A stretch of 64,000 nt of DNA from an uncultured virus (IMG/VR IMGVR_UViG_2049941000_000050) (lineage: Duplodnaviria > Heunggongvirae > Uroviricota > Caudoviricetes). The notes beneath the pieces were generated by a model. It was not told the origin of the DNA. It was given only the letters and a program-made list of their open reading frames with translations, and searched no databases. Made by a program: the position numbers and the translations under genes. The DNA lies in IMG/VR virus record IMGVR_UViG_2049941000_000050; one strand, 5' to 3'. This document shows, piece after piece, positions 16,854 to 63,999 of the stretch. The stretch's first letter is position 1. Each line of letters opens with the position of its first letter.

Positions 16854-18189
16854 TTAAAAGGTCGCATCTTCATGTTTCACAGTCCCATAGCTTATTCCGA
16901 ATTTCTTCTGAAAAGAGGCTAAGAACTCCGCACGCTTAACTTCCCTCTGTTCCGGAGGTACGTTTATCATATCCACTATTTCAAGCATATTCTTTGCCGC
17001 ACGAACGTCTCTGTCTTCAGATATACCGCATTTACAGGAAAATACCCGGTCGGACAGTTTTAGTTCATGTGCTTTTCCACATTTCATACATACCTTGCTG
17101 GTCGGAATAAACCTGTCTAAAACCACTACGTTCGGCAGTGTTTTAAGTTTGGATTTGATTCTTCCAAGACAGCTATGCTGAATCTGTTTTCCGAACAGAC
17201 CTTTGTGCCAGTTTTTCAACTGCTCGTCCTGAATGACGACGCGAGAGTACCTTTTCAATTTCGATACAATCCGATTCGCCATGTCGGTTCGTCTGTTGTT
17301 TATTTTCTGATAACACTTCCGAAGTTTTTTTCTGTTTCTCATCCGGTTGTTAGAACCCTTAACGCAATGGTTCATCCGTTTGCTTGCTTTTTTAAGGGAT
17401 TCAGTTTCTTCAACCGAACAATCCATGGTTTCACCTTCCGAGGTTGTCAGACTGTGCTTGATTCCAAAGTCGATACCTATCGACTTTTTGACTTTTTCTT
17501 TTTCTTTGAAATTGGTTTTTGGCGTGTATGTGGTCACGGCAACGAAAAACCCGTCCGGTTGGTTTAGTATTTTTACGTTAGCGTACTCGATTTCCCGCTC
17601 GTTTATGAACTGTTCCAACCCGTTTACGTGGACTTTCCTACTCACGCCCTACAATTTCATTCCGGATTTTCCCCTGAATGAGTAGGTACTTTTAAACTGC
17701 TTTAACCCCACGGACCTAACTTCTGAAACGAAACCCAATTCGCCGCGTTTTATGTTTTTTCTCTTTATGTTGCTAACAATCGATTTTAAGTTTGACTTCA
17801 CCTCGTCGACCACCTCTTGAATTTGGGACGCCGAAATGAACCTCAACAGCCTGTTTTCAAATTCCCCGGATTTTGTTTTAACCGGGATTTCGGTTTTCGA
17901 ATGGATTACCGGTAGTGTGTCCCAGTCTGCCTTTTTCGACTTTATGAGGCTGATGATATAATTTCTTACCCATTTTGCCTCAACAAAAATCATCTTTAGC
18001 TCTTCTTTCTGTTTTTTCGAGAGGCGGTTATTCTGTATTTTAACTTTGAATACGCGACAGACCTGAAATNNNNNNNNNNNNNNNNNNNNNNNNNNNNNNN
18101 NNNNNNNNNNNNNNNNNNNNNNNNNNNNNNNNNNNNNNNNNNNNNNNNNNNNNNNNNNNNNNNGTTGTATTCCACTTGGTTGTTGTCAT
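16854..18189 (-). CDS. tnpB: TnpB family nuclease with an in-frame TAG at 17649-17651
   Basis: ORFs 17649-17993 and 16854-17645 are in one frame (GMKL*GVSRK) and collinear with TnpB 733-2028 (KVKIQGIHG). GIDFGIK, IQDEQ, CMKC, DRDVRAAKN. N gap near the N-terminus. Confidence 0.85.
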
Positions 18190-21105: not shown

Positions 21106-21256
21106 AATGCGCGGTGTTTTCTTAAAAAGAAAGGAAACGTTTTCAAAATGGACTTAAACGATTTCTACGCGATACTGGTTTATTCCCTACTGGGGATGTT
21201 CTTAGCCGAGGCGGTCTGGTTCTCGGTGATGCTTTTCAAAACGAGGAAACCTAAAG

Positions 21257-21960
21257 ATGGACAAAAAGTACAGGATTAGGTTGAAGAGACTCCTCTGGGA
21301 TTATTACGCGGTCGACGTTCGGTTCAGAAGCTTTGTCATGAACAAAAGATATTACACGGTCGCGAAAATCAACAACGACGGGGTGGTCAACAACCTCAAA
21401 GGATTCATGCGGAATTCTTACGAGGACGCGTTTACCAGTCTCCGTGAAGAGTACAACCGCATCAAACACTTTATGAGAGGGGACGAGATAATTTTCTACA
21501 CGGACCAAAACGGAATGGTTAACACAACTTTCATCCCCGATTTCGACACACTAGACGAACTCGAGCTGAAAATAAGTGTCGGGGGGCGGGAGAAAATCAA
21601 CGCGGCGAAAAAGAAATGAGAAAAACCGCATTCGAGAGAATCTTCGAACGGCTGGGTTTTGAAATTCACACCTATGAGTTTTCGAGCGGGATTTTCACAT
21701 CACATCTTTTTCTGGACAACAACGTTGTCGGGGTCTTCGTTCCGACGAACGAAATTTTATTCACCATTCTCAGTGGTTCCGGAGGAAGCGAAAGAGAGTC
21801 CGTGTATTGGCTGGGACGGGCTTTTCTCGAATGTAACGATTCGAAACACATGGTGGGAACCTCCGTCAACGGGAAAAACGTCCCGATTTCCTTCAACATT
21901 CCGTCCGCGTCCTCGATGAAAGAGTTAGAATTCAAGCTGAAACTTCAATGTATAATATGA
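21257..21960 (+). other. two family-A paralogs (21257-21619, 21616-21960)
   Basis: IPDFDTLDELELKISVGG and IPSASSMKELEFKLKLQ. Confidence 0.65.
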
Positions 21961-23746
21961 AAGGGAAAAAACTATGAAAGACAAGGAATACGAAAATCTC
22001 CGAAGAGACGAGGAACTCCAGAAGTCGAGAATCCTCAACGCGAAAAAAACCATATCGAGTAGTCTGTGTTCGCTCGAGCGAAGCGTCGACGAGATAAAGT
22101 GGGCTTGCCAAGCCTCGAATTGGAACGACGATGTGATTTACCTCATCGAGGATGCCAACCTTAAACTGGGATATGCCCTCGCGACCCTCGAAATGTGGTT
22201 CGAGTTCGAAGACGAGGAGCCGAAAGAAAAAGAAAATGATTAGCTTGTCTGAAACGGTCTCGATGGAATGCCCGGGCGAGGAGTGGTCCCCCGAAAAAAA
22301 GCAGTCGGTTGCCAATCTGGCGAGAACCTTCTCGGTGAAGGTGCGGTACAACTATTGCGCCGGGAGAAAAACGAGAATCGTTTTGACCGGAAGGGGAATC
22401 GACATCGGTCGTTTTCTCGAAACGGAGCGGAGACTGAAAGGAGAATACGAAGATGGAAATCTCGAGTAATGCAAATAAGGTTATGAATGCCAGAATCGAA
22501 AAAATAGGTCTTTTCTACGCCAGGCACAGCCGTGAACTCCGGTTGAAAATGGAACTCGACCTTTCGAATGGATGGTCGGCGCAGGTTTTCCTTCCGATGA
22601 AAGATGTCGAGGAGTTTGCCCTGATGATGGCGAAATACTTTTCGGAGAATATTGAGGACGGGGCTTATCTCGAAGATTTGACCGGGAAAATCATCAGCGT
22701 AAAATTTTCCGGGGACGGCACGACGTTCGAGGCAATCGGCGGTCCGCTTTCCCAAGAGAAGGATTTCATAAAACTTTCAGACCGATGACGCCGAAAGTTT
22801 TCAAGTCGAGATACGAGTCCGTCAGAAGAGACGCGGCAAAACTGAGAAAAGAGATTTCCCCGTTTCTCAGGAAAATGGACAGAATCGGGGAGAAGGCGGA
22901 CAGTCTTCTTTCCGACCTGAGGAGAGACGGTCTTAAACCGGAGAAATGGGACGAGAAAGTCCTTCTGGCTCTGGAGGGGTTGTGTCTCGGTGAAGAAATA
23001 ACCGACATCTCGGACGCGCTGGAATACGCTGAAAAAACCGGGTTTGAAATCAACGAAGAGAAAAAAAATGCCAATAAAAAACATACTGTACATAACCACG
23101 TTTAATGACGGTACGCCGCGTCTTCACGTAACCGAATCGCTGGAAAAGGTCAGGGAATGTTGTAAGGTGTGGCTAAGAGAAAATAAAAATGCCTTTATGC
23201 CTCTGTCGCGGATTGCGTCCATTCAGGGTAAACGGGGGGTGTGGCTAAGAGACGATAAAAATGTCGGGTTTGTGGGAAAATTTGAAATCACACTTCCGTC
23301 CACGACGGTGTTCGCAAAGACGGACGAAAGCGGAATGTATACCAAACTGAAAACATTAACTATCGGGTTTTCGGAACCGAAATTGGAAAACGCCGAAGAT
23401 TTGGAACAGCAGTTTCAATCGACTCCCACAGGAATTGGGTCGCTTAGGACTTTTTTGAGGCTTTCGTGCGAAGACATTTTTCTGGGTAAAATATTTTTCG
23501 ATTTTCCGATAACGTTTGTTCCGGATACGGAGAAACCGTTTCTTTGTGACTANNNNNNNNNNNNNNNNNNNNNNNNNNNNNNNNNTACGGGTACGTTTAC
23601 AATAAATCTTTCAAGTCAATTGTGTATAAAGACCAGAACGGAACTCTCAGTTTTGAGAACTCGCTGATGAATAGTTTTGTTGGGGATTCAAAAGAAGAGA
23701 TAACGAGACTGGTTTTTAAGAGATACGGTGAAGAGGGGATACTCTG

Positions 23747-25656: not shown

Positions 25657-26519
25657 TATTAAGAAATAACATAAAGATTTCCGAACGATTCCGAGGAACG
25701 CAACTCTTCCATGGCTTTGTCGAATTCCTCTTTTCCCTCGTCGCCTATGCTGGTGTCGATTGTTCCGCCGCCAATTAGCTGGACGGAACCGAACTTCTTC
25801 CTGACTGTTCCCAGCTAGATTTTCAGCAAAGCGAGAAACAGTCTCTTCACGTATTCGTTTCCGTAAAGCTCTTCCGGCGGCGGCTCGATTTCGCACGTAA
25901 CCAGAATGACATTGTCCCGGTCGGGAAAAAGTCTCGGTTCCGGAATTATCTTCAGTATTTTCGTACTCCTGAAATACCGGTATTGGGGAACGGAACCGGT
26001 AAGGCGGTTAATCATTTCCAAATGCTCGTGAAGATTGTGCAGACCGACCCAGGAACCGTTCGGTGTTCCGACGCTGTTAAAGAACGGGAATATGCCGTTT
26101 CCGGCGTAAGACTGCATCAACGCCCCGGTTCCGAAAAAGAGGTCGTTCCCGTATCCGTAAAGAAGGGCGTCCCTTCTGAACGAAATGTCGTGGATATCGG
26201 CTATGTTATACTCAGAGAGGTCGATTCCCTTTCCGGGAACGTAACCGTTCAGGTTGACGAGTATGTCCTGGACCTCAAACGACGCATATTTGGTGTACTT
26301 CTCGATGGCGTCCGCCGCGCATACCTCAATCATTTTCTTCGACAGCTCGACATTTACCAAACCGCCGTCGTCATCGTCCGCCTCTCCCCCGAGTTTGGTC
26401 AATCCCCAGGCGACCAAATCGTCGAAGCTTTTGATGTACGGGTGGAGGTAAGAGGACCGCTGGATTTCTTTTTCTTTCCGCTCTTTCTGAATTTCGTTTG
26501 GCTCGTTTTGCATACTCAC
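25657..26519 (-). CDS. T4 gp13-like neck protein, read through TAG at 25815-25817
   Basis: LG..VNVEL near the N-terminus. After LALLKI* the frame continues LGTVRKKFGSVQLIGGGTID...LYVIS-TAA, matching the gp13 K.QWG..KF..VQLPGG pattern. The terminal TAA lies near 25659, so the left coordinate is approximate. Confidence 0.8.
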
Positions 26520-28211: not shown

Positions 28212-31200
28212 CGGTTTCGTTCTTCTTCTCAATCTCGATTAGTTTCCGCATTTTCTCCGGGTCGAACTCCCCGACGTTAATTCCGGCTTCGAGAAGCGCG
28301 GAATATTTCATGTATTCGTCGGAAACGCGCCACTCGGCATCCGGAAGGACAAGATATTTTTCACAGTCGGAAATCGCCGCCATGGTGTCCGGGTCTTTTA
28401 TTTTCTTTCCCCCCTCGGAAACTACCGGATACCATTTCGAGTCTTCCTCGGAAAAAATGTCTGTTTCAATAAGCTTGATGTTTGGAAAATCATCTTCCGG
28501 GTACTCTTTCTCCATCGTGTCCAGTCCCGCGAAAAAAACCTCGTCGTAAGTCAGAGAGGTTTCATCTTTTCCCCCGTCAAGCGAAATCTCAAATTCCTCC
28601 GTAAAGATTTTCTTGTGCGAAGGAGCGAGTTTGAACTTTATTCTAAATTTGATGTTTTTCATGGTTTACCATATCATATTATATGAGCGAGGTATCTATG
28701 ATGCTTGACATTAGCAACTTTTTTGACGAAGACCGTCTCATTTCCGTACGACAGACCGTTCCATAGTTGGAAATCATTTTCGGAACCAGATATACGTATT
28801 CCGATTCGTCCTGTTCCTTTTTCCGCTTCTTCTCCCCCTTCTCAACCTCTTTCATATCCAGCCCGTTTTCCCCGACGAATCTGTTCAGGAACGAGCGGAC
28901 CTCCGACGCGTGTCTGGACTTGAATACCGTTTTTAAAACGGGATGTAGGTTGTGACGGGAATTCCCGGACAGAGTTTCGACTTTGAACCCAAAATCGAAA
29001 ATGGCTTCCTCCACATTCTGGAGGAAAGGAACATCATTCCTGTCACAAACCGTGGGAACCGACAATATAATAAACTCCCTCCGTTTTGTGGTAAAAAAGA
29101 ATTTCGTTAATTTTGGGGCGTCCATTACATTGTCCACGTCGTTGAATGCCGGGGACGTTTTCTCACGGCTCCTGTAATACGCCTCGATTCTTGCGATTCT
29201 GTCAAAATCCGCGAAGACAAAAAACAAGTTTCTGAACCTTTCGTCGTTGTCGTCAAAGAAGACCTTTCTGACCGCCGATACGGTTTTTTCAACAATGTCC
29301 GACCTCAGTCCCTCCCAGTTGTGATATCTCATAAAATCCGCCAATTCGAAAATCGTCAAACCGAACAGTTTTTCGGTGTTCATAGCCTCGGCTATTTTTT
29401 CCCGTGCGTCGGTTAGGACCCGCTGTCTTTCCCAGAGGGTGGATTCGATGCTTGCGTTGATTTCCCAAAGCTTTTTCTCCAAGTCGAATATCACGCTCTT
29501 TTTGGTATCAGTCATTGCAAAAAATCTCCCACTTAAATTCCCTGTTAGACAGTCTGACCGAAAATTTGACGGTTCCGCCGCACAGACCCTCGGTTTCGAT
29601 AACCGCGTCGTACGGTTTATGACTGGGGTATTCCGGTATACCATCCGCCAACAGGTCAAACATGTCATCTTCAATTTCACGTGTGATATCCGGGAGCGAA
29701 GAGAGGTCGCCGTGGTCGTTTAGGGCTTTGAATATCGTCTCGTGGCTGACAGAACAAACTCCCACTTTCCCACGGACGGTTTCCAATTCAACGACTTCGT
29801 TTCTGAAGTCGAGCGCGTATATCGTCAGTTTACAATCGACTAGCATATCCTCTCCACAAACTCGTATGTTGAACAATTGACAGCGTGGTCGTAATCCGCG
29901 ACCAATGCGCGTACTGCCTTTCTCAAGACCCCCATGTCGGTCGTCGAGCAGAACTCGTGGTAGTAGTCATTTTTGTGGACGTAAACCCTGTATCGGAAAA
30001 ACGGGTCGTACTCGAACGCCTCCGTTTTACTGGGCTTAAGCTTGAACGAGATAGATACCGTGAACTGTTTGTTTTCGGGGGTCAGGAACAGGTATTCGGT
30101 TTCCGAGACGTTCAGAGTTTCGGACGAGGTTATGTTGGTGTTGAAGTAAAACCCGACCAGCATCAGATTTTTGGAAAGATTTCTGTCCTTCTTTGAAAAC
30201 ATTATCGGCAGAATTTCCCCGAGCCGTTCGGAAACTTTTTCCCGGGATGATTTCACCGTAAGGTTTATTGTTTTATAAGTCTCCCTCGCCGTGTCGAAAA
30301 GCGTCAATTTCGGGACGAATTTTTCAGACATACTTCCACTCCCCCCTTTCACTATTAACCTTTACCCATTTCATACACCCGAAAATCGGCTCCGTCTCCA
30401 AAACTAAGGAAAACATGGTATCGAGACTGAATAAGCTCAAACCGAACACCTTTTTCAGCATCGAATACCTCGAGTTGAAAAACGTCATGTCAAACTGCGG
30501 CATCTCGGATAAATCCCCGCTTATGTTCGCGTTAAAGGCGGATTTTACAAACTCCTCCCGTTTTTTGGAGCGCGAAATGTCCGCTACCCCGCTGATGACT
30601 CGGACCGACGGGGTTCCGTCCGCGTTGAACCCGCTTATGGTCAAAGTCATCGCTATTTTATTACAACTCTTATTCTTCATCAAAGTGTTCTCCGTTTTCT
30701 CTCAAGACCTTATTCTTTCTTAGTTTGTTTCTCGTCTCAAAAAACAGGTTGGTCGACTCAGAGTCGATAATCCCAAACCCCCAACAGAGGGACAAAAATT
30801 TGTCGTACCATTTCTCACCGCCGAAGTTTCTCAGTATAAACCCGGCAAGCGAGGAAGCGAAATCCCGGCTGTGGTCCGTCAAATTCTCGTAATACGCGTA
30901 ATAAACCGCTTCGCCGAACTCCGTCTTCTTTCCCGGAATGTCCCACAGTTCGCGGTGGTCGTTAAGAAAAGAAAACAGCTTCCGCGTGAAATCGCCGTTG
31001 TCGATGCTCGCCGCGAAACCGAGAAGCTGAACGAGATACCCAATCCCCCAGGATTCGAAATTCTCCTTCAGCGGGAAATTCTCGGGGACGCCGCACACCG
31101 AGAGTTTCAGCTTTATTTCCGGGAACCTCATCTTCTTGTTGTAATCGAGAATTTTCAGTATTTCCGACAACGGTCCGTCCGGGTCGGCGTACTCGAGCGA

Positions 31201-38309: not shown

Positions 38310-39133
38310 TTAAACTTTTTTTCCATTCTCTCTTTCGTTAATATATTTTATCCAATAAATTCTGCCCAATTTCCATCCCCATCTTTCGTAATCAGACAAA
38401 TCTGTTTTGAGAATAAATTTCGATTCTTTTCCATTGTTCACCCAACAGCGAATGTGAGCTGGGTTAGACTCGTCAATTTTTTTAGGTTCAACGGCTCCCA
38501 TTCTCCACCCATTATTGAGATATTCATCAAGAAGATGTTTTTTAATCTATTTTTTTAATTTTAATTCGTTATTATGAATCCATACTGTATTATAATTTCC
38601 ATTTTTTCGCCTTTTAAGGATATTTTATTCTTTTCCCGTATTTTTTGTTTGGTTTCTTCCGTGTGATGTTTTCCTTTGAAATGATATGGATTTAAATGAA
38701 GTTTACAATTATAGAATCTATCTGGGTCGGTAGCCCATATCCGTTTTAACGCTTCGCTTATTTTCTTTCCCTTTTCTTTTCTATAATTTTCATTCGACCA
38801 GTTTAATTCTGCGGCCCTTTTAGTTCCCATATTTCGTATATCTGTGAAATTATTCTATTGACCGCCGACCCTTACATTATATGTATCTTCTCTAGAGACA
38901 AATTCTTCGTTTACTATTTCTCTTTCCTTTTGGTTCATTTCTTCAAATGAGTCGAAATCAAATAGTGTTTCCCGTTTGAAGTTTTTTCTTCCTATGATTT
39001 CAATGTCTTTAAGGAGGTCTTTTCCACTTCCGAGATATTCATCGTTTGGATTATATGTTTGATGTTGGCCGATATAGATTTTTCCATTTATTAGATTTGT
39101 AGTCTGATAAATGATGTAATGCTTTTTTTCCAT
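38310..39133 (-). CDS. Seg-like GIY-YIG homing endonuclease with NUMOD3; in-frame TAG and likely C-terminal frameshifts
   Basis: IIYQTTN..KIYIGQH. TAG at 38855-38857 joins it in frame to 38561-38830 (FKGKHHTEETKQKI). W..N..GW..G motifs follow in shifted frames. Confidence 0.72.
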
Positions 39134-46700: not shown

Positions 46701-49700
46701 CCCCCATCGGGGGGAAACACTATCCCTCCCGAAAACGATGCAAACTTTAACACAACCCGTAGAACTTTGTCAAGCCGATTCGTAGAATTTTTTTAACTGA
46801 TTCCGCAAATCAGCCAAGTCCCGTCCAACCCTTTCCCGAAAACCGCGACACTCGTGTTCAGCTCCATCGCGATTTCCCCCATCTCCAACCGATGGGCTTC
46901 GCGCTCGTAGCGCAGTATGACAAACCGCTTGTCATCGTGGATGTCCACGCCGACAAGCTTCGACTCGATGTTGTGTGTCCGCCGATACTGCTCGCCGAAA
47001 CCGTATGCGGTCATGACCACCGAAACATTGTTAGCCGTCTCGATAACTAATCTCATTCCGTCACTCCTCTCTCGTTGGCAAGGTGACCCCCGATAAAGCG
47101 GAAGAGAAACCCCATCTCTTCCAAAAACACCGCGTATTCTACATCACCCGTAGAATTTTGTCAACAAGAAATCCGTTATTTTTTAAAATTATTTTTGTCG
47201 AAGCCGTATAATATTGCGCGGGCTTTTGGTCTGCAAAAATGTTGATAACCTGTAGATAACTTTTTTTCTCTTTTTTATTGACAAACCGGTGTTCGGTTTG
47301 GTATAATTCGCCGGATTTCTTTTCCACGAGGAGGCGGATTTTCGCGAATTATATCATTTCTTTTTCTTTTTGTCAAGAAAAAAATAAAAAATTGTTTGAA
47401 GAAAAAACCCGTGACGGGAAATTTGATTAGCCCCGTCCACGGGTTTTCGTTATCATGACAACTAGCGAACAAAAGAAACAATTTTAAATTATTTCATTCC
47501 GCTTTTGCGCGGCTCTTTTTCGGAGAAAAAGCCTTCCCGACCTTTTTCTTCCACACAGAATCGTTCCGGAGTGTTCCGGTCTTCCCCCATTCCTTAAACC
47601 CGCCCTCGATTATTACCTTTTCGTCTTCGTCCAACACATAGAAGCCCTCATCGTCCAATTTAATTTCAATGTCTTTCCGCTCTTTCAGAACCACAGACCC
47701 GTCATTATCGACAAGGTAATGCTCCTCGAAAAAGTTCTGTTCGGCTTCCCGACCCCAAATCTCCGCCTTGAGGTTAAGGTCTCGGCAAAGGGACTGCACG
47801 GAAACCAGTCCCTCGTCTTTGAATTCCTTTTCCATCTCCGTGTCGAGAATCATGCCGCAACCCCAATCGACATTGAGAAAGACGGAGTATGTCCCGTCAA
47901 CGATGCCGCCTTGGTTCAGAAACTCCGCACGGCACAGATGGTGCTTGTAATCTGTCCCCTTCGCTATGCTTCTGAATTTCTTCAGAGACTCGTCTTCGCC
48001 CCTGACGCACAACTTAACGAAACAGCAGTTTGCCATAATTTCCGACCCCTTTCGAATTATCAGACCCCTTTGGCTTCCTTGAGAAGGGATTCGACCTCTT
48101 CCCGTTTAGCCACGATTTTGGACATAAGCTCCCCGTGGGGGCTTTCCGTTCCCGCGTTCCATTCGACACGGGCGTTCTCGTCAAGGAAGAACCATTCCTC
48201 GTCACGGAGTCTTTCGTACTCCGTGACCGAGGAAACCAACTTGGCGAGAATTTCTCTCGCCCTATTGACCATCTTTAAACTCGCCTTTCGTCTCCACCTC
48301 GAAATCGCCCGTCCACGAACAGTATGACGGTTTGATTTCCCCGTTGGCTACCATGTTCTCGACTATTTCCCTAGCCTGCTCCGGAGAGGAAGCTTTGACC
48401 TTGCGCGTTGTCCCCATGTCGAAATGAATATCGACAACGAAGGTTTTTCGCGTGTCGGTCTCCGTGACCTCTTCTATCTTGAAGGACTTGGCCTTGCCCT
48501 TACTAAACCCGTTCGCGTTGTCGGGTTGGCGGTGGATAACCATGCCGCTGTTGTCAGTGATGAACACTGTCGAATCGTCCGTCCGGTTGTCGTAGTAATA
48601 TAACATAATTTCCTGCACCATCCTATCGTGGACGAAAAGGAACTGGTCTTCATCGACCAAGGTATAGTTTCTTTCGCCCCCGTCCGGAGTCATTTCCGTG
48701 CATTTCAAACTGTACTTCTGAACCTTGACACCCATTCTCTTGTCCCCTTTCTTTCGTTAGCAGTGCATCTCTGTCTCTACCTCTTTGCTTGACCAATCTG
48801 AAGTACCCACGAACTCCTTTGAGTAATCTTCAGATTCGTAAGCCATTTCCATAGCCTTGTCTTCCGACTCCGCTTCGACTATCACCTCGCAATCGTAGCT
48901 TTCCGTCCAACGGACGATGTAAGCCCGCTTGTTCTTGTTCCCGACCTTTTCGTTTTTCACCATAGCTCATTTCCCTTTCTTTCGTTAGCAGTCCGTGTCT
49001 GTGAAGAAGATTCCACATTCTAGGTTGGTCAGAGCATTGACCGCTCTGTTCCGTTCCGCCCCGTCCGTTCTAGAAATCCACTTCATCAAGTAGTTCTTGA
49101 AGGCGGTTTTCGTGGAAAACCATTGGGTTGTACCGTATGCCTTGATTCCAAACTCGCCTGGCTTTTCTTCCCCTTGGTTCGCCTTGGCATCGTTTTCCAT
49201 GTCAGACCCGTTAGCACCTTCGACCGTGTCGAGGGTGACAATCTCGGAGTCTATATACTCCAAATCACCTAGTTCCGAATCTTGAAGGCGGGATTCCGCC
49301 ATCTCTTCCGCTTCCTCTTCCGAGTTTGCGCGAACAATGTAAGTCAGCCGACCCTCAACCTTGTAAACAACCTCAAACAACATAACCTTACCCCTTTCGT
49401 TGCGGGCGGGGGAGACCAGTTCCCCCCACGCCCAAATTCGTTCACTTCCGATTTTCAGAAACCAATCTCAAAAATCGGGTTTACTTTCTCATACCCCGAG
49501 AATTTCTCCTTGTTTCCCGTGATTTCGAGTTCATCCCAAGCCCACGCTCCGGCGAGGTCTTCGTTAACCCCGCGATAGTCTCCACCACCTCTGCCGTTGC
49601 CGACCGCAGTCAAAATGGCGAACGGGCAAACAATCCACGGGGACTGCTCATTCAGCGCATCAAAGTAATCGTCAAACGAGATGTACTGCCCTTTCGTGTG

Positions 49701-52700
49701 GTTCAGGAGATACTTCCCCGCATAGAACCCACTTTCCGTTTTGGGCGGTGGGAATGTGTGGTCATGCTCCGTATCCCAAACGGATTCGTAGCCGAACTCC
49801 CCGTTGGAGATTCTTTTCAGCTCGTCTTCCTCGGCGTAATCCCCGACCCACGCGAGATGTGCGGGGTTGTCCAACATTTCCCTCGCCACCGCTACACACA
49901 GATGCGTGTAAACATACCCATGCTCCAACAGTTTGGCTAAGATGTATTCCACGCCTTTCACCTTACGGTCATTGACCGTGACCTTCGTGTCGCAGTTGTG
50001 TCTGAAAGCGACTTTGTAATACTGACCCATAACCTTACCCCTTTCGTTTTTACGAGACCCCCTTTGGAGAAGGAAACCACATCCCACCCAAAGAACACAG
50101 ACATAATACCACATCCCCGACACTTTGTCAAGGTGTCGGGGAAGATTTTTTCAAAAAAAGTCAGACCGACCGGACGGAGACATACTCGCCGACACTGTCA
50201 TTCTTCTTGAAGAACTGTTCCCCTTGGTTCGCCTTGGCGTGGAACGATTTCGCCAACTGCCGGACTGTGTCCCCAAAAGAGGAAAGAAGAAGCTTACTCT
50301 TCTCTCGCGTGAGGTTGGCGCGGTTGTACCACACATTCCACGAAGCGGAATTGTAATTCCCTTCTATCGCGATGGGGAAATTCTTGCACCTGTCCAAGGT
50401 GTCCCCCGAACAGATGCGGTATTCCCGCAATTCGGTCTTACTGGTGTGTATGTCCACGCCGTTGACAATGACCCCGCCGGAAGCGCATTCAATCTCATAA
50501 TATCCGTCATTATAGCGGACGCAGTGGCAACGACCCGGGACTAGCGAGAATCTAATGTCGAAGAATTCGCCAAAGTGCTCAACTTCCAAACTGCCCGCAC
50601 GAATCGTCCCGTTACCACCGACGATGCCACTGAAATGCCAAATTTTAAGGCAGTCTAAATTGAAAAACAGTTCGATGTTCTCGACAACTTGTTCCACGAT
50701 GTAATCGTGGATTTCGCAGTACTCCTCATAGGCTTTCTTACAGTACTCCGCGATTTTCGCATCGTGGTATTCGCGGTTCATGTCTTCCGAAACCTTCTTC
50801 ATAGAAGATGCTTCCTTAAGAAGGTTCTCGATGTTCGTTTTGTCAGCGGTTGTCATCATAACCTTACCTTTCTGGGCGTTGGAAGAGAAACCCTATCCCT
50901 CCCGAAAACGAGACATAATTTAACACAACCCGTAGAACTTTGTCAACGAGAAATCCGTTTATTTTTTCTCGGCGGTTTCTCAACCACCGGAAGCGAGAAG
51001 CCGACTTTGCCCGAAAGCAACCCGTCTTTGTACCTAAAGTCCAATTTGCCGACTATCCAATCTTCGTGCTTGTTAAGCACATTGTCGATACAGTCTTGGA
51101 TTTCGACGCAGTCTTGGCATTCGATACTCATCTCGGCGTTTCCGCCGTCAATCCGAACATGAAAACCGCTGATTTTCTCCGTTCTCATAGCGCATACTCC
51201 CTCTGTTAGAACCAATCGACATAAGCGGTGTCTCCGGTGTTCGCTTCGAGACACTGCTTGATAAGTTCTTTCACGGATTCCCGAATCTCTTCCGGAAGGG
51301 ATTCGTAAGAGTCTTCCGTGATGTTCTCTTCCAAGAGTCCTTTGTCGATTTCCCACCTTTCCTCGTTCGTTTCACCGGAAGTGTAATCGAGAAAATCGAC
51401 TCCCTGTTCAATCAGCCAATCCTCAATGATTAGGCTTTGGCAGTTCAGAGTTTTGTTTTTATTGTTGTTATGCTCAACAATGTGTTTCGACTGCACATAA
51501 GGTCTGTAATCCATAACCATACTCCCAACTGTTCTTTCCACGGGAAGAAACCCTATCCCCCGCAAGAACAAGACATAATTTATCACAACGGGTTCGTTTT
51601 GTCAACGAGATTCTTGAATATTTTTTAAAATTANNNNNNNNNNTGTTTATCGTCGTGTCGGAGTGGAGCAAATCGCCCATTTTCTGAACGAACCGCTTCG
51701 CCCCATCAACCCGCCTGATTTTGTCGAAATCGTCGACCGGGTCCAGCGAGGCGGTTTTCCCGTTCGAAAGCTCAAGACTTATCTTTTTCCCGGACATCTT
51801 GTTCTTTTTCAGCTTATCCACGTATCCGGAATAACTCTTCAGCATGTCGAGAATGTTGGCGAGGTTCCTGATGAAAATATTCTTCAATTCTCCGTCGCCC
51901 GTACCNNNNNNNNNNNNNNNNNNNNNNNNNNNNNNNNNNNNNNNNNNNNNNNNNNNNNNNNNNNNNNNNNNNNNNNNNNNNNNNNNNNNNNNNNNNNNNN
52001 NNNNNNNNNNNNNNNNNNNNNNNNNNNNNNNNNNNNNNNNNNNNNNNNNNNNNNNNNNNNNNNNNNNNNNNNNNNNNNNNNNNNNNNNNNNNNNNNNNNN
52101 NNNNNNNNNNNNNNNNNNNNNNNNNNNNNNNNNNNNNNNNNNNNNNNNNNNNNNNNNNNNNNNNNNNNNNNNNNNNTTACCTTAAGCAAGCCGTTGAATC
52201 TCGCCCCCAACTGACTCCGTTCAAACTCAATCCCCACATAATCCCCCCTACGGCGGAGGGAACTCACGGCGTTAACCCACTCCGTGAACTTTGTCGGGTC
52301 GATTAACGCCACCGCAAAGCGGACATCGTCAATCGTGCCGACCTTCGGCTCGGTCATGTTGGCGTTGATGAAGTTGTCCCCCAAGTTGTAGTTGAAGGAA
52401 TATTCCATCGTGTACCGCTTCACCCTCGGTCTTCTCGTTACCATAGGTCACTCTCCCTTTCCGCAACAATCGGTAATTTTCCCCTTAAGGGGCATTCCCG
52501 TCTTAATGCAAACCCTACTCGACACACCCACCAAATGGTGGGTGCAGTTCCAACACTCGCCGTACAGTTTTTGCCGCACAGACTTGTCTTTTCGATAGGC
52601 TTTCTCTTCTTCTTCCGGAACTGGGACAAACTTGCTCATAACTCACTCCCCCCATCTACTAGCACTGCAACAGTGTGTTATCCTTCTTGACGAAGCGGAC

Positions 52701-55700
52701 GCATTCACGAAGAAGACAGAATTTTTCGTCCTCTTCCATCATGAGGTTTTGGTATTCCTCGCTATGCTCATAGTCCAAGCTACTGTCGTCGGAATAACCG
52801 TGGTCTAACTTCCACATTAAGGTCTTGCTTTGGCTTTCCTCGTAAGCCAAGTACCGGTCGGCGAACTCTTCCAAGAGTTCCTTGTCGGTCAAATTTTCCA
52901 AATCGTAGCGCATAACAACCCCTTTCATCGACAGACGGGGAAACCCTATCCCCGTCAAGAACAAGACATAATTTAACACAGTCCGCACGGATTGTCAACC
53001 AAACCCGTGCGGAAATTTTACGAGACCCCGCCGGAAGCCAAGCTACGCCGAATAATCATCGGCGTAGGAAGCCACCTTTTCGTACCACTTGAAGCGGTCG
53101 ATTTCTTTTCCGGTGGCTAAATCCACAACCTTGGTTATCTCTCGGTATCCGTCAACTTCGTTCCCAAGTTTCCGGCACTTCGACACAATGGGTTGCGACC
53201 TTGCCGCAACCCTTCACGAAACAGTTGGTATCGTTGTGCGGACACGGCCCAACCGCCCGTCCGTAATTGTCTTTCACGAATTTCATGTGCTCTTCGCACA
53301 CGAGTGCGTGAGCCTCTTCGTCCACAAGAATCTCCAATCCGTGCAAATAATCGGTTTCCATAACCATACCCCCAAACTGTTCTTTCCACGGAGAGAAACC
53401 CTATCTCCCCCAAAGAACAAGACATAATTTATCATAACGGGTTCGTTTTGTCAACGAGTTTTTTAATATTTTTTAAAATTATTTTCCAACTTCGTGGGAA
53501 AATAATTTTAACTTATTTCTTTAGAATAAATACCAAGGTATAATATTTTTTGTCAAGAAAAAACTGTAAGAAATTATTTTTTAAAATTAATATTGACAAA
53601 CCGGATTTGTGGGTGGTATAATTTTCCACCCAAAACCAGTCCCCCATAGATGGAAATAAACGCAATTATATCAAAAATCGGACGGATTGTCAAGATTTTA
53701 ATTTGAAAATATATAAAAAAATGGGCGGTCAAAAGACCGCCCAATCGGTTGTGAATTATCCCTTGTGGGGCATTTGCCCCCATGTGATGGCACACTTCTC
53801 GCTCATCAGTACAGGACAGTTCGTGCAACCATGCCATGGCACTTGGTGGTCGGAACAAAACTTCTTGAACCTCTCCGCCTGCTCTTCCGCCGTCCCCACG
53901 TCGCAGTTCCTTGCTGGGGCGGAGAGAGCTTTTTGGATTGCCGTTTTTGCCTCGCACAAATCACGATGTCCGCACAGTATGTCACCACAGTTCGCATTTA
54001 TCGTGCTGTTCTCCCAAGCGAGACTGTCGCAAGTATGATTTGCTCGGGCATGGTTGCATATTGCCTTCTTCGCTATTTCCAGCGCATCGCGCATCTTCAT
54101 CTGATTACCTTCCATCACCATCTCCTTTCCGTTCCTTCGCCTGGGCGAGGAGCCAGTCAAGCATACGCACTATGTCTTGTGCAGAATCAAGTCCGCCATC
54201 CCAATGCGTGACAACATCCCACGAAGTCTTATACACATCACAGTTGCGGGGCGGCGTGGCGAGTGCGTCACGGGCTTTTTTGAGCACCGCCAATATGCGC
54301 TCAGTATGTATAAAACAATTGGGTAATTCGCTCGCTATGGCGAGGGTGTCCTCATCGACACCTAGGTCATACAATACCCCGATGAGTTCCTCTACCGCTT
54401 CACGCAACGCCACCACATTGCCTGTAGTCTTTCCCATCTTCAATCCCCTTTCTACGAGACCCACTAATCAATCCAAGCGAACACACCTCGCTTGCCCCAT
54501 TCTGAATCTTTATACCAGTCTTTCCCCTTTGGGGAAAACCCTCCCAATTCTAGGGTAGCGTCCAAGACTTCGCTTGCCGAAACCTGCCCTTGCCCGAATA
54601 ATTTCAGCACTCCGGCACGAAGTGCCGTGTCGAAGTCCTCTTCCTCAAAGGACATTTCCTCGCCCGTGTTGAATTCCATGTGTAGTGTAACCATGATGAC
54701 TACCCCTTTTTACGAGACCCCTTAACAAAAAGCTTTGGCGGACTGGGTCAGTATCCGCCAAAGCCCCGAAAGTCAATTTCCGTTCTATTCGTACTCACAA
54801 GCAACACACTTAATCATTTTGAGTGTTTCATCAATTTGCGTGATATTGTTGTTGAGAAGGGTAACAAGTTCTAATTCGGAGTCCACGACATATCCCTCAC
54901 GGGTCACCATAGAGATAAGTCTTTTTATTCTTGTTATCGAATCATTCATTAAATCTTTGGCTGAACAAACCGTGTTATAGACAATATCAAGCCTATCAAG
55001 TGCCTTATCATCGATTGCCAGTTCCTTTTTGCATCTTTCTAAATCCATACTAATACTCCTAACAAACAAATTCGCCTTGAAAACTTATCAAGACGGAATT
55101 CGGAAACCCAATCGTTCCCGAAAACAAGACATAATTTAGCACAACGGGTTCGTTTTGTCAACGAGATTCTTGAATATTTTTTAAAATTANNNNNNNNNNN
55201 NNNNNNNNNNNNNNNNNNNNNNNNNNNNNNNNNNNNNNNNNNNNNNNNNNNNNNNNNNNNNNNNNNNNNNNNNNNNNNNNNNNNNNNNNNNNNNNNNNNN
55301 NNNNNNNNNNNNNNNNNNNNNNNNNNNNNNNNNNNNNNNNNNNNNNNNNNNNNNNNNNNNNNNNNNNNNNNNNNNNNNNNNNNNNNNNNNNNNNNNNNNN
55401 NNNNNNNNNNNNNNNNNNNNNNNNNNNNNNNNNNNNNNNNNNNNNNNNNNNNNNNNNNNNNNNNNNNNNNNNNNNNNNNNNNNNNNNNNNNNNNNNNNNN
55501 NNNNNNNNNNNNNNNNNNNNNNNNNNNNNNNNNNNNNNNNNNNNNNNNNNNNNNNNNNNNNNNNNNNNNNNNNNNNNNNNNNNNNNNNNNNNNNNNNNNN
55601 NNNNNNNNNNNNNNNNNNNNNNNNNNNNNNNNNNNNNNNNNNNNNNNNNNNNNNNNNNNNNNNNNNNNNNNNNNNNNNNNNNNNNNCGAATTTCCCAACC

Positions 55701-57127: not shown

Positions 57128-57203
57128 AAATCCCCCAAAAACAGTTTCCGTCTAAAGCCACATTGGCTTTAACCGAACGGAAACCGACATTCCCAAGGGA
57201 AAC

Positions 57204-58471: not shown

Positions 58472-58909
58472 ATGGACATCGACAGAAACATCATTAAGTA
58501 TTGGGCGAACCTTTTCGAGAGCGGTGAAGCGAGTGACGACCTCCCGACCCCGAACCTCCCGAAGGAGAGCGTCGGTTCCGCGGGCTACACCGGAGATAAA
58601 ATCTACGGCGACCTCGAGGATATTTATAGGCTGGTGGACTCCGCCGGTGACAAAATGTACGAAGCGTTTGAAATGTTTAAAAGCTTGGTGACCAGAATTA
58701 AGAAAGAAGCACCCGAATTCGAGAACGATGAGAGCATAGAGGAAATATACGACGGGTTCGCCAACATTATCGCCTAGCGTAACTTTAAGGACGCGTTCAA
58801 AAGACTTTGCGATTCCCTGGAGCGTTACGGTGATTCTGTCGAAGCTAAGGCGGACGCGGGCGTCGAAAAAGACGAGGTCGTTAAGTCCGACACGCCGGAC
58901 GGACAGTGA
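58472..58909 (+). CDS. hypothetical late protein read through TAG at 58775-58777
   Basis: GTAAATA at 58426. After FANIIA* the frame continues 43 codons (RNFKDAFKRLCDSLERYG..) to TGA. Confidence 0.6.
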
Positions 58910-58931
58910 CCGATTCGGACAGAAAATTCCC

Positions 58932-59682: not shown

Positions 59683-59799
59683 ATCCTTTCTTTAAAAACT
59701 TTTTCTCGTCAACGCCGTGTAATGTATCACAACGGTTTCAACTTTGTCAAGGAGATTCAAAAAAAAACGTAAATATCTTAAAAACCCGTTCAATATTTT

Positions 59800-60501
59800 A
59801 TGGAAGACAGTAATTTCGGAAAACTTTTCGACATCTACGACATAGGGGGTCTCTTGAGAAAAAGGCTCGGGAAAAACGGTGACGGCGGGTATGTCGTTCC
59901 GGAAGGGCTCCTTGGAAAAATAGAAAACTGCGTGACGTTCGGCGTCGGTCCCGACGTCTCGTTTGAAATTTCCCTCGACGGGATTTTTCCAGATAAAATC
60001 CATTTCGACTTTTACGACCACTCCGTCCACGGTCTTCCCGGTGTTCCGGAAAACAAAAAGAATATGGTTTTCCACCGCGAGATGGTCACACCGGAAAACG
60101 CCGAGGGGACGCTTTCCGGGAAAGATAACGTCCTTCTCAAGTTCGACATTGAGGGCGCGGAATATGGGCTGACCGACAAAATAAAGGACGAAACCCTCGA
60201 CCGCGTCGTTTTCTTGGTGTGCGAAATCCACTGGGTTGGAGAAAACCGCGAAAAAGCGCAGAAAATTCTTTCTTGGCTCGGGAAGAAATTTGTCCTCTTC
60301 CACCTCCACGGGAACAACAACACGAACAACTATTCCGACATAGACGGGAGAAAAATCCCGAACGTCGTCGAGCTGACGCTCGTCAACAGGAAATTCGCGA
60401 CCGAAGCCGAAATCTCGAAGGAAAGCTTCCCGATTCCCGGAATCGATTTTCCCAACGCCAACTGGATACCGGAAATGGAAATTTCCTGGGCGGGAAAATA
60501 A
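59800..60501 (+). CDS. FkbM-like SAM methyltransferase-fold protein
   Basis: RLG..GDGGY, FGVG.D.SFE, LKFDIEGAEY, CEIH, HLHGNN. Confidence 0.8.
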   Translation: MEDSNFGKLFDIYDIGGLLRKRLGKNGDGGYVVPEGLLGKIENCVTFGVGPDVSFEISLDGIFPDKIHFDFYDHSVHGLPGVPENKKNMVFHREMVTPENAEGTLSGKDNVLLKFDIEGAEYGLTDKIKDETLDRVVFLVCEIHWVGENREKAQKILSWLGKKFVLFHLHGNNNTNNYSDIDGRKIPNVVELTLVNRKFATEAEISKESFPIPGIDFPNANWIPEMEISWAGK

Positions 60502-60624
60502 TTAGGGCATAAGGGTAGGAATCAAAGCCACCCCGAGAACGGTCAGCAGAAACAGAATAATAACCGTGAGACAAGATTTCATATTTTTTGTGTCCTTTTC
60601 CCTTATTTAAGGAAAAAACAATTT

Positions 60625-62625
60625 ATGGCAATCGATAACAAAGAACTCGCGACGGTGAAAAAGCCGAACCAGGTCGAGTATATCACGAAGGAACTGCTCA
60701 TAGAGCGGTTGAGAGAGATAAAAAAATGTAGAGAGAATATATAGTACTTTGCGGAAAGTTATTATAGAATATAGTCGCTTGACCAAGGTCTCCACATCAT
60801 AAAACTCTATGATGTTCAGAAAGACCTTTTATCCTTTATGAAAGATAATAACCGGTGTGTCGTTTTGGCGGCGCGGCAAAGTTCCAAATCCACAACGTAT
60901 TGCATTTATCTTCTCTGGCTAACATGTTTCCATTCTGATAAAAAGGTGCTGATGTTGGCGCAAAACGAAAATACAGCGTTGGACCTTTTGGGAAGGATTC
61001 GACTGGGATACGAATATCTTCCATCATGGTTGAAACCCGGATGTGTGGAATTTAACAAGTCGTCAATTCTTCTAGCCAACCGTTCTAGTATAAAAGCGAT
61101 GGCTTCTGGAAGTGATTCAACACGGGGAACCTCCGCGAATTTACTCGTACTCGATGAGTTTGCATTTTTAAATTCTTCCGTTTCTGAAAAATTATTCACT
61201 TCCGTTTACCCAGTTGTCTCGTCGTCGAAAAACGGAAAGGTCATAATCGTTTCCACCCCGAACGGAAAAAATAACCTCTACTATGATATCTGGAGAATGG
61301 CGAACAACAAAAACGACCCGGACAATATCGACGGGTGGAAACCGTTCCGGATGGACTGGTGGCAGGTTCCGGGAAGGGACGAGAAGTGGAAGCAGGCGCA
61401 AATAGCCGCCATCGGGAAAACCAGGTTCGCCCAGGAATTCGGGAACGAGTTCCTCGACGACGTCCAGACGACGAAACTCATTTCCGACGAGGTCATAGAC
61501 CGCCACAGAATCCAGCTGACCGAGTTCAAGCGGAAGGGGATAAACGGAGGGAAAAACCTTTTCGTCGACTCGAAGGACAAAAAGAAGCAGTACACATTCA
61601 CGATGTACTACCAATTCGACCCGGACAGAACGTACCTCGCTTCCGCCGACGTGGCGGAAGGCGTCGGGAAGGACTCGTCTGTCCTTTACGTTTGGGACGT
61701 GACCGACACCTCCGACATAAAGATGTGTTTGAAATTCTCAGACAACCAGGTCTCCATCCTCGAGTTCGCCTACGTGACGACAAAGCTCCTCGAGCTTTAC
61801 TGCAACCCGTACCTTGCGTGCGAGTCGAACGGAATCGGTCTCGGGTACATAGAACAGCTGAGGGTCACCTACGGGTACGACAACCTGGTCAGGATGAACA
61901 AGAACGGCGGGTGCGGAATCGACAGCCACGTCACGCTAAAGTCGAAAGCTTGTCTCTGGTTCAGGGACATGATGACGACCGTCGGGTTCGGGTTCGAGCT
62001 GTATGACCCCGAGCTTCTGGACGAGTTCCCATCGTTCGTGAAGAAGGACACCGTCCAGCACAACATATACGCGGCGGTGAAGGGGAGCAACGACGACCAC
62101 ATCATGGCGATGATTTGGATGTGCTGGATTCTTAACCCGGCGAATGTCGAGAACTACTACAAGGTCACGGGGACCTTCACCGCCGGGACCAACCAGCTGT
62201 TCGCGAAAGGTCTGAAACCGCTTTTCCCGTACACCCCGTCGGAAATAGAAAACGCGCTGTCGAACAGCGTCGTGAATGATTTCCAGATATATAGGGAGAG
62301 GAACGAGTCTCTGTGCGACGGGAAAAAGCCGGTGGGAAGCGGCGGAAAGAGCCAGACCGGGAAAAGGTTCCAGGAAAAAGTCGTCCTCTCCGAGAGAGAG
62401 CTAATCGATATGATGCGGAGGAAAACAGCCGACGGAGACGACGGCGGGTATTCGCTCCAGGGGGGAGGAGGTTCCGGGGGGTTCTATTTCGCCTCGACCG
62501 GAAACGACATCGACTACAGAAACGGTTTCGACCCGGACAAACTAAACGTCATCTGGGAGGACGAGTTCTTCACCGGGGAAGAACCCGAGAGCGACAATAT
62601 TTTCGGAATCTTCGATTACGAGTGA
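60625..62625 (+). CDS. terL: terminase large subunit (T4 gp17-like); true start 60625 with TAGs at 60742 and 60772
   Basis: AAGGA RBS, EIKKC.ENI*YFAESYYRI*SLD.G, ARQSSKST, LDEFAF, VSTPNG, ADVAEGVG.D, CESNG, DDHIMA. Confidence 0.93.
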
Positions 62626-62661
62626 AACACGCGAGCTTTCCCACTCGTTTCTATAAAAACC

Positions 62662-62696
62662 AAAACCGCGTCGGTTTCCCGACGCGGTTTTTTTTT
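62662..62696. terminator. bidirectional intrinsic terminator
   Basis: AAAACCGCGTCGG-TTTC-CCGACGCGGTTTTTTTTT between convergent genes. Confidence 0.85.
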
Positions 62697-62716: not shown

Positions 62717-63256
62717 TCAAACCTGGTACGCGAGGTCCAGAATGACCTCAAACTCCTCATTGGTGTACATTTTCATAAAGCGGTCGTAAGCCTTCTTGCA
62801 CGCTTTGTACGCGGTGTTAGCCCTCTTGTCGTCGGTGTACCCGAATTCCGCCTTGAAATCCCCCGGTGACATGTCCGGGTAGTTGAAGAATATCCCGGCG
62901 TCCATAATTCCCATCGCGAAAGCTACTTCCTTGTCGGTCGGCGTTCCGTCTTGTGTGTTTTTGACCGAATCCCAGAAAACGAAATTCGTCTTCCCCTTCG
63001 GGTTGCTGACGAAAACCCTGTACTTGTTGTGATAGTCCCTCGTGTTGAAAATCGGGGAAATCTCGCACCCCATCTTTTTCATCGTCACCGTGGTGTTTGT
63101 CTTTTTCAGGAAATCGTCGATTGAGGAGGCTTCGAACGTCCCGTCGGAAACTTCTTCCTCTTCTTCTCCGGTCTGTCCGGACATTCCGGTCTCGTCATTC
63201 TCAAGCTCTTCCAAAACGAGCTCCCTTATGCTTTTCTTCGTTTTCTTAATTGTCAT
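62717..63256 (-). CDS. hypothetical protein
   Basis: 179-aa ORF overlapping the stop of the upstream tail gene. Confidence 0.65.
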   Translation of the reverse strand: MTIKKTKKSIRELVLEELENDETGMSGQTGEEEEEVSDGTFEASSIDDFLKKTNTTVTMKKMGCEISPIFNTRDYHNKYRVFVSNPKGKTNFVFWDSVKNTQDGTPTDKEVAFAMGIMDAGIFFNYPDMSPGDFKAEFGYTDDKRANTAYKACKKAYDRFMKMYTNEEFEVILDLAYQV

Positions 63257-63999
63257 TTTCCTTCTCCGTTGTCAATGTAGAAATTTGAATACGCGAGCAC
63301 CACCGAGTGGTGCACCTCCTCCGCGCTCGCGGACTCGAGACTCAGTTCCTGGAAGCTCTTTATCCAGCAGTTCTGAAACACAAAGTCTATTATGCGGTTT
63401 TTAAACGAGTCGATGAGCCAGACCCTACAATCGACGAAATCCTTTATCGCTATCGTCTCCACGTTCGAGGTGTCGGCTATCTGGTTAATCTGCCCCTCCG
63501 TCGCCGAACACCAGGTGTAAAGCGACCTGTAGTTCATCCACTTTTCGTCGACGATGTACTCTATGACTATCTCTTTCGTTTCCGCGTCCATGACGTGCGT
63601 CGGAAACTCGAACGAGTAACCTTTGAACGAGGTTGTCGTCGAACCCATAACTATCTGCGGAACCGAAAACCTGGTAAGGTTCAGCTCGAGGTTGTTGTAC
63701 CTTTTCCCAAGAACGTTCATCAGCGGGAAATATCCGACCCATTTGTTGACGTGGGAATAGTTGGTGTTCAGCCCCTACATCCTCGCCAGTTCGGACAAGT
63801 ATCCGGTTTCTCCGTCCCGCCTGTTTCCGCCGTTTCCGTTCGGATAATCCGACCCGCCGCCGTTCAGTCTCTCGATTGCCTGAAGAATCGGGTCGGTGGT
63901 GTTCGGAATTGTCGAATATCTGATTCTTCTGAATCCCGAACCGGCGGTTCTGTCTGGTTTTGTGTTGGGAATATACTCCCGACCGTTCAGATTCTGGAC
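63253..63999 (-). CDS. T4 gp3-like tail completion / tube-fold protein, in-frame TAG at 63775-63777, open to the window edge
   Basis: VPQI.MG.T, IEYIVDEKWMNY..LY.W, F.NCW. The frame is open upstream except for one TAG (ARM*GLNTNY). Confidence 0.7.

Follow-up and report, generated by a model that had tools for sequence, protein, structure and literature searches.

In-frame TAG codons, best read as glutamine, in virion genes of an uncultured T4-like rumen phage

The large terminase gene of an uncultured virus (IMG/VR record IMGVR_UViG_2049941000_000050) is crossed by two TAG triplets in frame, which raises the question whether UAG is a stop codon, a sense codon or both in this phage. The stretch of DNA that was analysed (hereafter the window) is 64 kb long with a GC content of 46%, and contains 26 masked runs (1,452 N in total) and 62,548 readable bases. 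It belongs to an uncultured T4-like lineage, and the sequencing runs holding it are labelled bovine gut metagenome. Family searches (PHROG and Pfam) recognized a T4-type large terminase, a neck or adaptor protein, a tail-tube-like protein, a clamp loader, an RNA ligase and a phosphoesterase, as well as mobile genes (four TnpB/Cas12f1-like genes, an IS200-type TnpA and two GIY-YIG endonucleases); numerous small open reading frames (ORFs) match no family. A preliminary description, made from the sequence, had proposed that TAG encodes glutamine in the late genes of this phage and is still a stop in the early ones. Comparison with homologs supports well that TAG is a sense codon here, glutamine being the best single reading, and TAG appears to have two uses in the window, as an internal sense codon and as a terminator.

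As the preliminary description had claimed, in-frame TAG triplets lie inside the terminase, neck, tail-tube, TnpB and GIY-YIG genes, with homology on both sides of all six triplets in these five genes. The genes and one orphan ORF are the following.

60625..62625, + strand, large terminase subunit, 666 residues with TAG read through; TAG at 60742-60744 (residue 40) and 60772-60774 (residue 50)
25659..26519, - strand, neck/head-tail adaptor protein (T4 gp13-like, PHROG 'Ad2'), 286 residues; TAG at 25815-25817 (residue 235); phrog_211 matched on residues 54-277
63253..63999, - strand, tail-tube-like protein (gp19/gp3 fold family), 5' end beyond the window; TAG at 63775-63777 (residue 75 of the open frame)
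16854..18185, - strand, TnpB/Cas12f1-like protein; TAG at 17649-17651 (residue 115); phrog_506 matched on residues 5-338
38561..39133, - strand, GIY-YIG/NUMOD3 homing endonuclease, 190 residues; TAG at 38855-38857 (residue 93); phrog_314 matched on residues 1-177
58472..58909, + strand, orphan ORF; TAG at 58775-58777

The terminase belongs to the T4-type family according to Pfam Terminase_6N (PF03237; residues 81-279, 44.7 bits for a cut-off of 22, E 1.6e-11), and both of its TAG triplets fall inside a match to phrog_5989 (residues 18-273, E 3.5e-50). They are bridged by the alignments of the best 120 of 3,384 homologs, and four IMG/VR relatives (42-47% identity) align unbroken from residue 1 or 9. 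Under translation table 11, the first start codon past the two triplets is the ATG at 60838, and a start there would result in the loss of the conserved LYDVQKDLL just ahead of the Walker A motif (VVLAARQSSKST). The closest deposited phages, among 50,697 phage records, are T4-like myoviruses with at most 34.8% identity. In the protein search, relatives of the terminase came from contigs 250-330 kb long, which means that the window may miss most of the genome.

Profile matches span five of the six TAG triplets. The match of the tail-tube-like protein (phrog_45, residues 76-245) begins one residue past the sixth, and full-length homologs align on both sides of it; the match of this protein to Pfam gp19 is weak (E 0.002, below the cut-off). 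The public gene call of the neck protein ends at the TAG (P0124, 232 residues). The N-terminus of the TnpB protein enters a masked stretch (18070-18163), and homology reaches upstream of the ATG at 17993. Of 879 phage records matching the homing endonuclease, 436 have one tblastn place that extends through the TAG and takes in at least 80% of the query; each of the 12 matches listed is a single piece crossing residue 93. A second TAG suspected in this gene, at 38547, is not in frame: the gene ends with TAA at 38561-38563, followed by AAT and another TAA. The triplet at 58775 is in frame as described, but its gene is an orphan, whose sole match among 1.84 billion representatives searched is the window's own 101-residue product. 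Since this gene has no homolog, read-through at 58775 has to be judged by the coding model, in which the 43 codons past the TAG score +18.1; it is possible, and the gene so lengthened would run into the 3' end of ORF 58825-59682, which is convergent with it.

The alignment columns point to glutamine, as had been proposed. Among the ten nearest homologs, the neck column (residue 235) is Q in all ten, always in an identical LLKIQLG context, the tail-tube column (residue 75) is Q in seven, the others being H, E and Y, and the TnpB column (residue 115) is Q in eight and S in two (Q 9/11 and S 2/11 over all homologs). At terminase residue 50, the four closest homologs (64-76% identity) have Q, followed by N, V, T, V, I and I. 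The larger sets are more mixed, with L 55, Q 35, I 5, M 4 and one gap in 100 neck homologs, Q 11, N 11, F 7, Y 4 and seven others in 40 tail-tube homologs, and I 85, V 21, L 6, Q 4 and four others in the best 120 homologs at terminase residue 50. Summed over the TAG columns, the log-odds are +13.0 bits for Q, -3.3 for I and -4.1 for V, and Q stands at +11.4 when the GIY-YIG column is added. CAG is the chief glutamine codon of the terminase, neck and tube genes (CAA, CAG and TAG counts of 5, 16 and 2, of 2, 5 and 1, and of 0, 7 and 1, respectively), in which TAG makes up four of 39 glutamine-type codons. At the TAG site of the neck gene, a related phage described below (G001) has CAG, one C-to-T step apart.

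TAG also closes ORFs in the window. A crude set of 77 ORFs ends with TGA in 36 cases, with TAA in 27 and with TAG in 14, four of the latter being internal TAG triplets. The stretches past the ten terminal TAG triplets have coding scores of -8.3 to +1.7, and those past four internal ones (17649, 25815, 58775 and 63775) of +8.2 to +71.4; this test is uninformative for the two terminase triplets, nine codons apart. In the same set, the median distance from a terminal TAG to the next TAA or TGA is 12 codons, and that from the stops of the other ORFs 29 codons (n=10 and 63, one-sided Mann-Whitney p=0.017), a difference that is no more than suggestive with so crude a set. The base context of internal and terminal TAG triplets does not clearly differ. 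All six terminators named in the preliminary description (13731, 14209, 21279, 22243, 45421 and 54785) are TAG in the frames given there. Small ORFs form two blocks, one at 12-23 kb (+) and the other at 44-55 kb (-), and these contain 11 of the 12 listed TAG-terminated ORFs.

13357-13731 and 13733-14209, + strand, two adjacent small ORFs, each ending TAG; read-through would add 4 and 15 residues
14287..14478, + strand, small ORF ending TAG at 14476; sigma70-like site (11/12, TG) at 14228-14257 just upstream
21151..22243, + strand, stretch that includes a membrane-like ORF of 43 residues ending TAG at 21277-21279 and overlapping the next start (21257); sigma70-like site (11/12) at 21080-21108
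21974-22243, + strand, ORF in the same stretch, ending TAG
29840..30352, - strand, ORF ending TAG within the neck/clamp-loader block; next TAA/TGA 4 codons on
44952-45140 and 45421-46308, - strand, two ORFs, each ending TAG
48262..48735, - strand, ORF ending TAG
52659..52988, - strand, ORF ending in tandem TAG TAG; sigma70-like site (10/12, TG) at 52998-52970
54464-54709 and 54785-55069, - strand, two ORFs, each ending TAG; sigma70-like site (10/12, TG) at 55161-55133

The blocks that hold these roughly 11 ORFs are rich in sigma70-like promoters, in agreement with the preliminary description. Three stretches contain 29, 35 and 44 such sites, versus 14.9 +/- 3.8, 16.9 +/- 3.9 and 18.3 +/- 5.3 in shuffles. 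Several sites lie just upstream of TAG-terminated ORFs (14228, 21080, 52998 and 55161), as consensus matches that are no proof of timing. No sigma70-like site of 10/12 or better stands just upstream of the terminase or neck gene, and the T4 late-promoter motif TATAAATA occurs twice for 0.67 expected, neither time upstream of a TAG-bearing gene. Ten sites are perfect (12/12, TTGACA-17/18-TATAAT), all with TG before the -10 hexamer; perfect sites are found at 42957-43114, 47278-47376, 53593-53693 and 57451-57647, frequently arranged as divergent pairs within the short gaps that separate small ORFs.

Sense TAG may be biased towards late genes, as had been proposed. All three recognisable virion or packaging genes carry it (4 in 1200 codons) versus none of the four replication or nucleotide genes (0 in 1109 codons; Fisher p=0.07), but so do a TnpB/Cas12-like gene and a homing endonuclease. 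Between virion genes and mobile-element genes, the comparison is 4 in 1200 versus 2 in 2160 codons (p=0.13).

An alignment-based scan of IMG/VR identified a relative of the phage, record G001, of which locus L020 is part (81.6 kb, 44% complete, GC 50%). It has 12 of the window's ORFs in common by tblastn, among them the clamp loader (60%), the neck protein (54%), the terminase (50-56%) and the RNA ligase (48%); the tail-tube query gave no match in this 44% complete record. A separate value of identity to the window is 55% for its neck protein and 58% for its terminase. G001 has only two internal stops, both TAG and both in the terminase, one opposite the Q of WKQ in the window and one opposite a K; one TGA and one TAA reported in it fall at alignment ends. 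Its crude set of 103 ORFs ends with TGA in 84 cases, TAA in 17 and TAG in two, one of these being terminase-internal. Nine tRNA matches were obtained, including Arg(TCT), Arg(CCT) and Met, a set shared with the window, and a tRNA with a CTA anticodon (L044:1498-1571). The best deposited-phage match of the CTA tRNA is a tRNA of the crAss-like phage cr53_1 (76.9% over 64 nt, E 1e-3), which is annotated as tRNA-Gln, has the anticodon CTA according to ARAGORN and is identical to it in 55 of 75 alignment columns. Compared with the window by blastn, L044, tRNA included, gave no significant match (best E 0.58). The G001 terminase (L056/L057, about 1650-2020 of the record) also contains an in-frame intein-like insert in its ATPase domain, from CVFGD to SHNC.

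Another, more distant IMG/VR record, G003 (GC 29%), was found via TnpB. Its TnpB gene, in locus L014, contains 12 in-frame TAG triplets, at least four of them at positions where every other sequence has Q, and the record has 16 tRNA matches, which marks G003 as a heavily TAG-recoded phage. ARAGORN identified no CTA anticodon in the seven G003 loci scanned, which do not cover every Rfam match. Neither the RF-1 family nor the family of the transfer-messenger RNA (tmRNA) gave a match above cut-off in the fragmentary records G001-G003. Searches of viral contigs with the single neck and GIY-YIG proteins gave no match, no relative of the neck protein was found in the genome-contig collection, and an exact search of metagenome contigs with the last 41 bases of the window was negative.

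The translation RNAs of the window form a cluster, in which no anticodon is CUA.

39264-39612, - strand, tmRNA
40344-40419, - strand, tRNA-Arg(TCT)
40427-40503, - strand, tRNA-Arg(CCT)

The two Arg tRNAs are the only ones in an Rfam scan of the whole window at gathering threshold. The tmRNA, which ARAGORN missed, is full length (Rfam RF00023, 75.6 bits, model positions 1-374); its tag frame, read off the alignment, looks like ...NDDYSLAMAA ending in UAA, and a strong terminator-like hairpin (39229-39200) follows it. ARAGORN with relaxed settings returned further tRNA-like matches at 2462-2555, 9278-9371, 25533-25618 (Gln-ttg), 40246-40335 (Met) and 57203-57291 ('Stop', tta). Those outside the Arg tRNA cluster were dropped as they had no Rfam support; around the 'tta' match (56400-58470), Rfam gave no tRNA even when E values up to 5 were allowed. 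The weak, 90-nt tRNA-Met(cat)-like match at 40246-40335 (- strand, relaxed ARAGORN only) lies beside the two Arg tRNAs, in the same position as the Met(cat) tRNA of G001.

We consider it likely that UAG stands for an amino acid in this phage, glutamine before any other, and that the agent is a phage CUA tRNA(Gln) encoded outside the window, as in G001. The genes recoded in this way would be at least those of the terminase, neck and tail-tube proteins, and probably one TnpB/Cas12-like and one homing-endonuclease gene. A number of observations weigh against this interpretation. No CUA tRNA was found in the readable bases of the window (ARAGORN, default and relaxed, and Rfam), nor any release factor or glutaminyl-tRNA synthetase domain (77 ORFs with PHROGs, 21 larger ORFs with Pfam), which the preliminary description had also noted. 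At terminase residue 40, all ten nearest homologs have I, L or V and none has Q, and the column of the best 120 reads V 41, I 28, L 28, Q 2 and 21 others. The GIY-YIG column is G in four of four homologs (36-44% identity; five of the 879 records were taken and one with an in-frame stop, from Vibrio phage pv27, was dropped). Glutamine is thus inferred from four of the six sites. TAG closes about one in seven ORFs of the window, unlike in G001, and the stops were counted in gene sets predicted by a crude self-trained coding model, not by a validated gene caller. The virion-gene bias alone is not significant, and two of the TAG-bearing genes are mobile-element genes, a class that decays, as the in-frame stop of the pv27 homolog illustrates. 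A tRNA could be hidden in masked sequence: three of the runs are 241, 271 and 497 bases long, and one of 71 bases adjoins the neck gene. The total score of the coding model is 4032 under table 11 versus 3886 with TAG as sense; this model cannot separate the two codes, and homology was used instead.

Read-through could also take place without a suppressor of the phage's own, by means of a host amber suppressor, the tRNA of a co-infecting phage, or a near-cognate host tRNA-Gln combined with weak release factor 1 (RF1). The tRNA content of the window would agree with this, and the low TAG density would tolerate weak read-through. A survey of jumbo phages (PMC13037316) reports recoded phages without suppressor tRNA and suggests that host or competitor tRNAs are used. 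Nevertheless, the relative G001 carries a CUA tRNA of its own, and the 64 kb visible here may be a minor part of the genome. A tail-tube protein has to be made in many copies, for which read-through at the percent level would hardly suffice, and we regard suppression from outside the phage as unlikely.

General decay, that is, chance nonsense mutations in a defective or degrading phage or in mobile genes, appears improbable. Homing endonucleases and TnpB genes often decay. The GIY-YIG homolog of Vibrio phage pv27 (L015, 63433-64089, standard code), which is interrupted by an in-frame stop and split into two CDS in its annotation, reads as ordinary decay in this gene class, and the second GIY-YIG copy of the window (37883-38173, - strand, 97 residues, ending TAA and without the NUMOD3 part), directly upstream of a 514-residue TnpB-like gene, may be truncated. 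As a control, 18 family-matched genes, each lengthened by 100 codons at either end, were re-read with TAA, TAG and TGA all translated as X. The homology-supported internal stops numbered six, in five genes, and were TAG in six of six cases, never TAA or TGA; in the 13 other genes, no match gained score across TAA or TGA (0/13). In the short GIY-YIG copy, the alignment runs 31 residues past the TAA while the score drops from 67.4 to 66.8 bits. In the gene at 26939-27259, the alignment start creeps into a stretch with at least four stops in 23 codons, which was taken as alignment spill. None of the five TAG-bearing genes needs a frameshift, and three of them are essential for the virion or packaging, the phage having been assembled at 77x. 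The TnpB and GIY-YIG copies have catalytic motifs that seem, from the alignments, to be intact, and G001 has the same TAG-only pattern. All of this argues against decay. The preliminary proposal thus stands on three points that it had itself put up for refutation: assembled contigs keep the TAG triplets, homologs do not end at them, and neither TAA nor TGA interrupts a conserved gene.

A residue other than glutamine, for instance an aliphatic one (Leu/Ile) or pyrrolysine, is slightly less probable still than decay. Terminase residue 40 and the L in 55 of 100 sequences of the neck column would suit an aliphatic residue, and ARAGORN labels CTA tRNAs 'Pyl'. This is outweighed by the Q of the nearest homologs at four of six sites and by the log-odds; moreover, the CTA tRNA of G001 resembles an annotated tRNA-Gln, and no Lys-like columns were seen. 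Finally, a sequencing or assembly artefact or a strain mix is hardly credible, for although the window stems from a metagenome and Logan contigs drop rare variants, the TAG triplets at 60742, 60772 and 63775 have the same letters in independently built contigs of two runs and are therefore no assembly error. Run X1, possibly the source run, provides a 77x contig that differs from the window at one position (61398) over 59891-62670. The same sample was sequenced in a second run, X3, whose contigs match the window at 58942-61152 and 62911-63964 without any difference. Runs X5 and X6, from two other studies, also cover parts of the stretch, and no RNA data set is among the runs holding it.

If UAG is read as glutamine through a phage-borne tRNA, the suppressor would be an amber-suppressor tRNA with anticodon CUA, charged with glutamine, of which the phage would have its own copy, by analogy with G001. 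The roughly 11 TAG-ending ORFs of the sigma70-rich small-ORF blocks would be made early, while host RF1 wins at UAG, and the virion genes would be completed only after the suppressor has built up. This follows the model of Borges et al. (10.1101/2021.08.26.457843), in which a phage CUA tRNA from standard-code genes later lets UAG-containing virion genes complete. Such a switch between early and late times is plausible.

Stop-codon recoding in phages is established in principle and is not new; what is unusual here is its low degree. Borges et al. (10.1101/2021.08.26.457843) cover cattle samples, align TAG with Gln in terminases, and describe recoded stops that build up in structural and not in replication genes, close relatives differing in code. 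The kind of recoding seen in the window is therefore already known. Surveys flag genomes by their gain in coding density, for which PMC13037316 requires 10%, and the published path to recoding starts from low GC. As in the code 15 phages of the gut (crAss-like phages such as cr53_1, Suoliviridae, Lak and other clades), the TAG triplets of terminase and structural genes align with Gln, termination by TAA and TGA is retained, no TAG occurs in replication genes, the setting is an animal gut (which includes cattle), and the relative G001 holds a CUA tRNA resembling a crAss-like one. Peters et al. (PMC9523058) and the phAss-1 study (PMC10607447) are said to be sources on such TAG-to-Gln phages. In contrast to them, the window has only six verified sense TAG codons in 64 kb, and reading TAG as sense raises crude gene cover from 44,088 bases (table 11) to 44,224 (+0.3%). 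This is no marked gain in density; such a gain is a rule for detecting recoded genomes and not a mechanism. The GC content of the window is not low, nor is that of G001, TAG still terminates ORFs, the lineage is a T4-like one whose terminase shares no more than 35% identity with that of any deposited phage, and no suppressor tRNA was seen in the window. With sense TAG codons so sparse, recoding of this kind would escape density-gain screens, and public gene calls would be silently truncated, as for the neck protein (232 residues) and the 58472 product (101 residues).

A parallel for a young or partial recoding is offered by the Agate phages, in which TGA-recoded and standard-code genomes exceed 90% average nucleotide identity and a standard-code member already has a suppressor tRNA (Borges et al., 10.1101/2021.08.26.457843). 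There, too, recoding comes first in structural and not in replication genes, and in the window the nearest homologs have Gln where it has TAG. Agate phages, however, belong to another clade and recode TGA to Trp, and the closest relatives of the window share 70-80% protein identity. Another parallel, from classical genetics, is that of the laboratory amber mutants of T4 and lambda on supE hosts (tRNA-Gln CUA), whose essential late genes with UAG are completed only with a Gln-inserting CUA tRNA. The essential late genes of the window would need such a tRNA as well. Amber mutations are induced, single and relieved by a host suppressor, whereas the TAG triplets of the window are several, natural and fixed in a wild population, and their suppressor is probably phage-borne.

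The window and G001 represent two stages of TAG use in one clade, so that it can be tested in which order TAG was lost as a stop, the tRNA was gained and the first sense TAG codons arose. Tentatively, and with less confidence than the reading of UAG as glutamine itself, the phage may be seen as a natural intermediate of codon reassignment, in which a mid-GC T4-like rumen lineage would use UAG both as a terminator of early-type operons (about one in seven ORFs) and as Gln in virion genes. The sister phage G001 would then have almost lost TAG as a stop, and the phage tmRNA might rescue ribosomes overrunning TAG-terminated messages once suppression begins. If so, recoding can begin without a prior low-GC loss of TAG, and density-based screens do not see it.

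This uncultured T4-like rumen lineage, with a terminase far from those of deposited phages, carries CRISPR-like arrays besides its tmRNA. Two arrays, at 3-675 (+) and 35178-35868 (reverse orientation), have a 32-nt repeat in common (GTTGCAACTCGCACGTACGCGGAAGATGAAAC), in at least eight and at least ten copies, respectively, with a period of mostly 64-68 nt. Certain spacers are repeated, and 10-nt N masks fall within spacers. Both arrays adjoin genes of the 'TnpB'/Cas12f1-like_TNB type (733-2028 and 33959-35161, with 36201-37742 on the far side). Judging from this arrangement, arrays and Cas12f1-like genes may form a compact phage-borne type V CRISPR system instead of plain IS605 elements.

Two families were recognized among the small ORFs, neither matching a known family. 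The first has in common the C-terminal motif (S/T)L.EL(K/R)LKL.L.G(I/V)(D/E), and its members were read in the translations.

12762-13397, 13357-13731, 13733-14209, 18793-19599, 19807-20211, 21257-21619 and 5533-6237, small ORFs with the C-terminal motif

The second, at 7905, 9378, 10154 and 10449, ends with ...MWKF.... The 269-residue product of 18793-19599 (+) matches large terminases only in the N-terminal ATPase part (phrog_5989 positions 110-202 of 347), and combines a twin-arginine-like N-terminus (MNRRRFIGTLIGGLAA) with the C-terminal motif of the first family.

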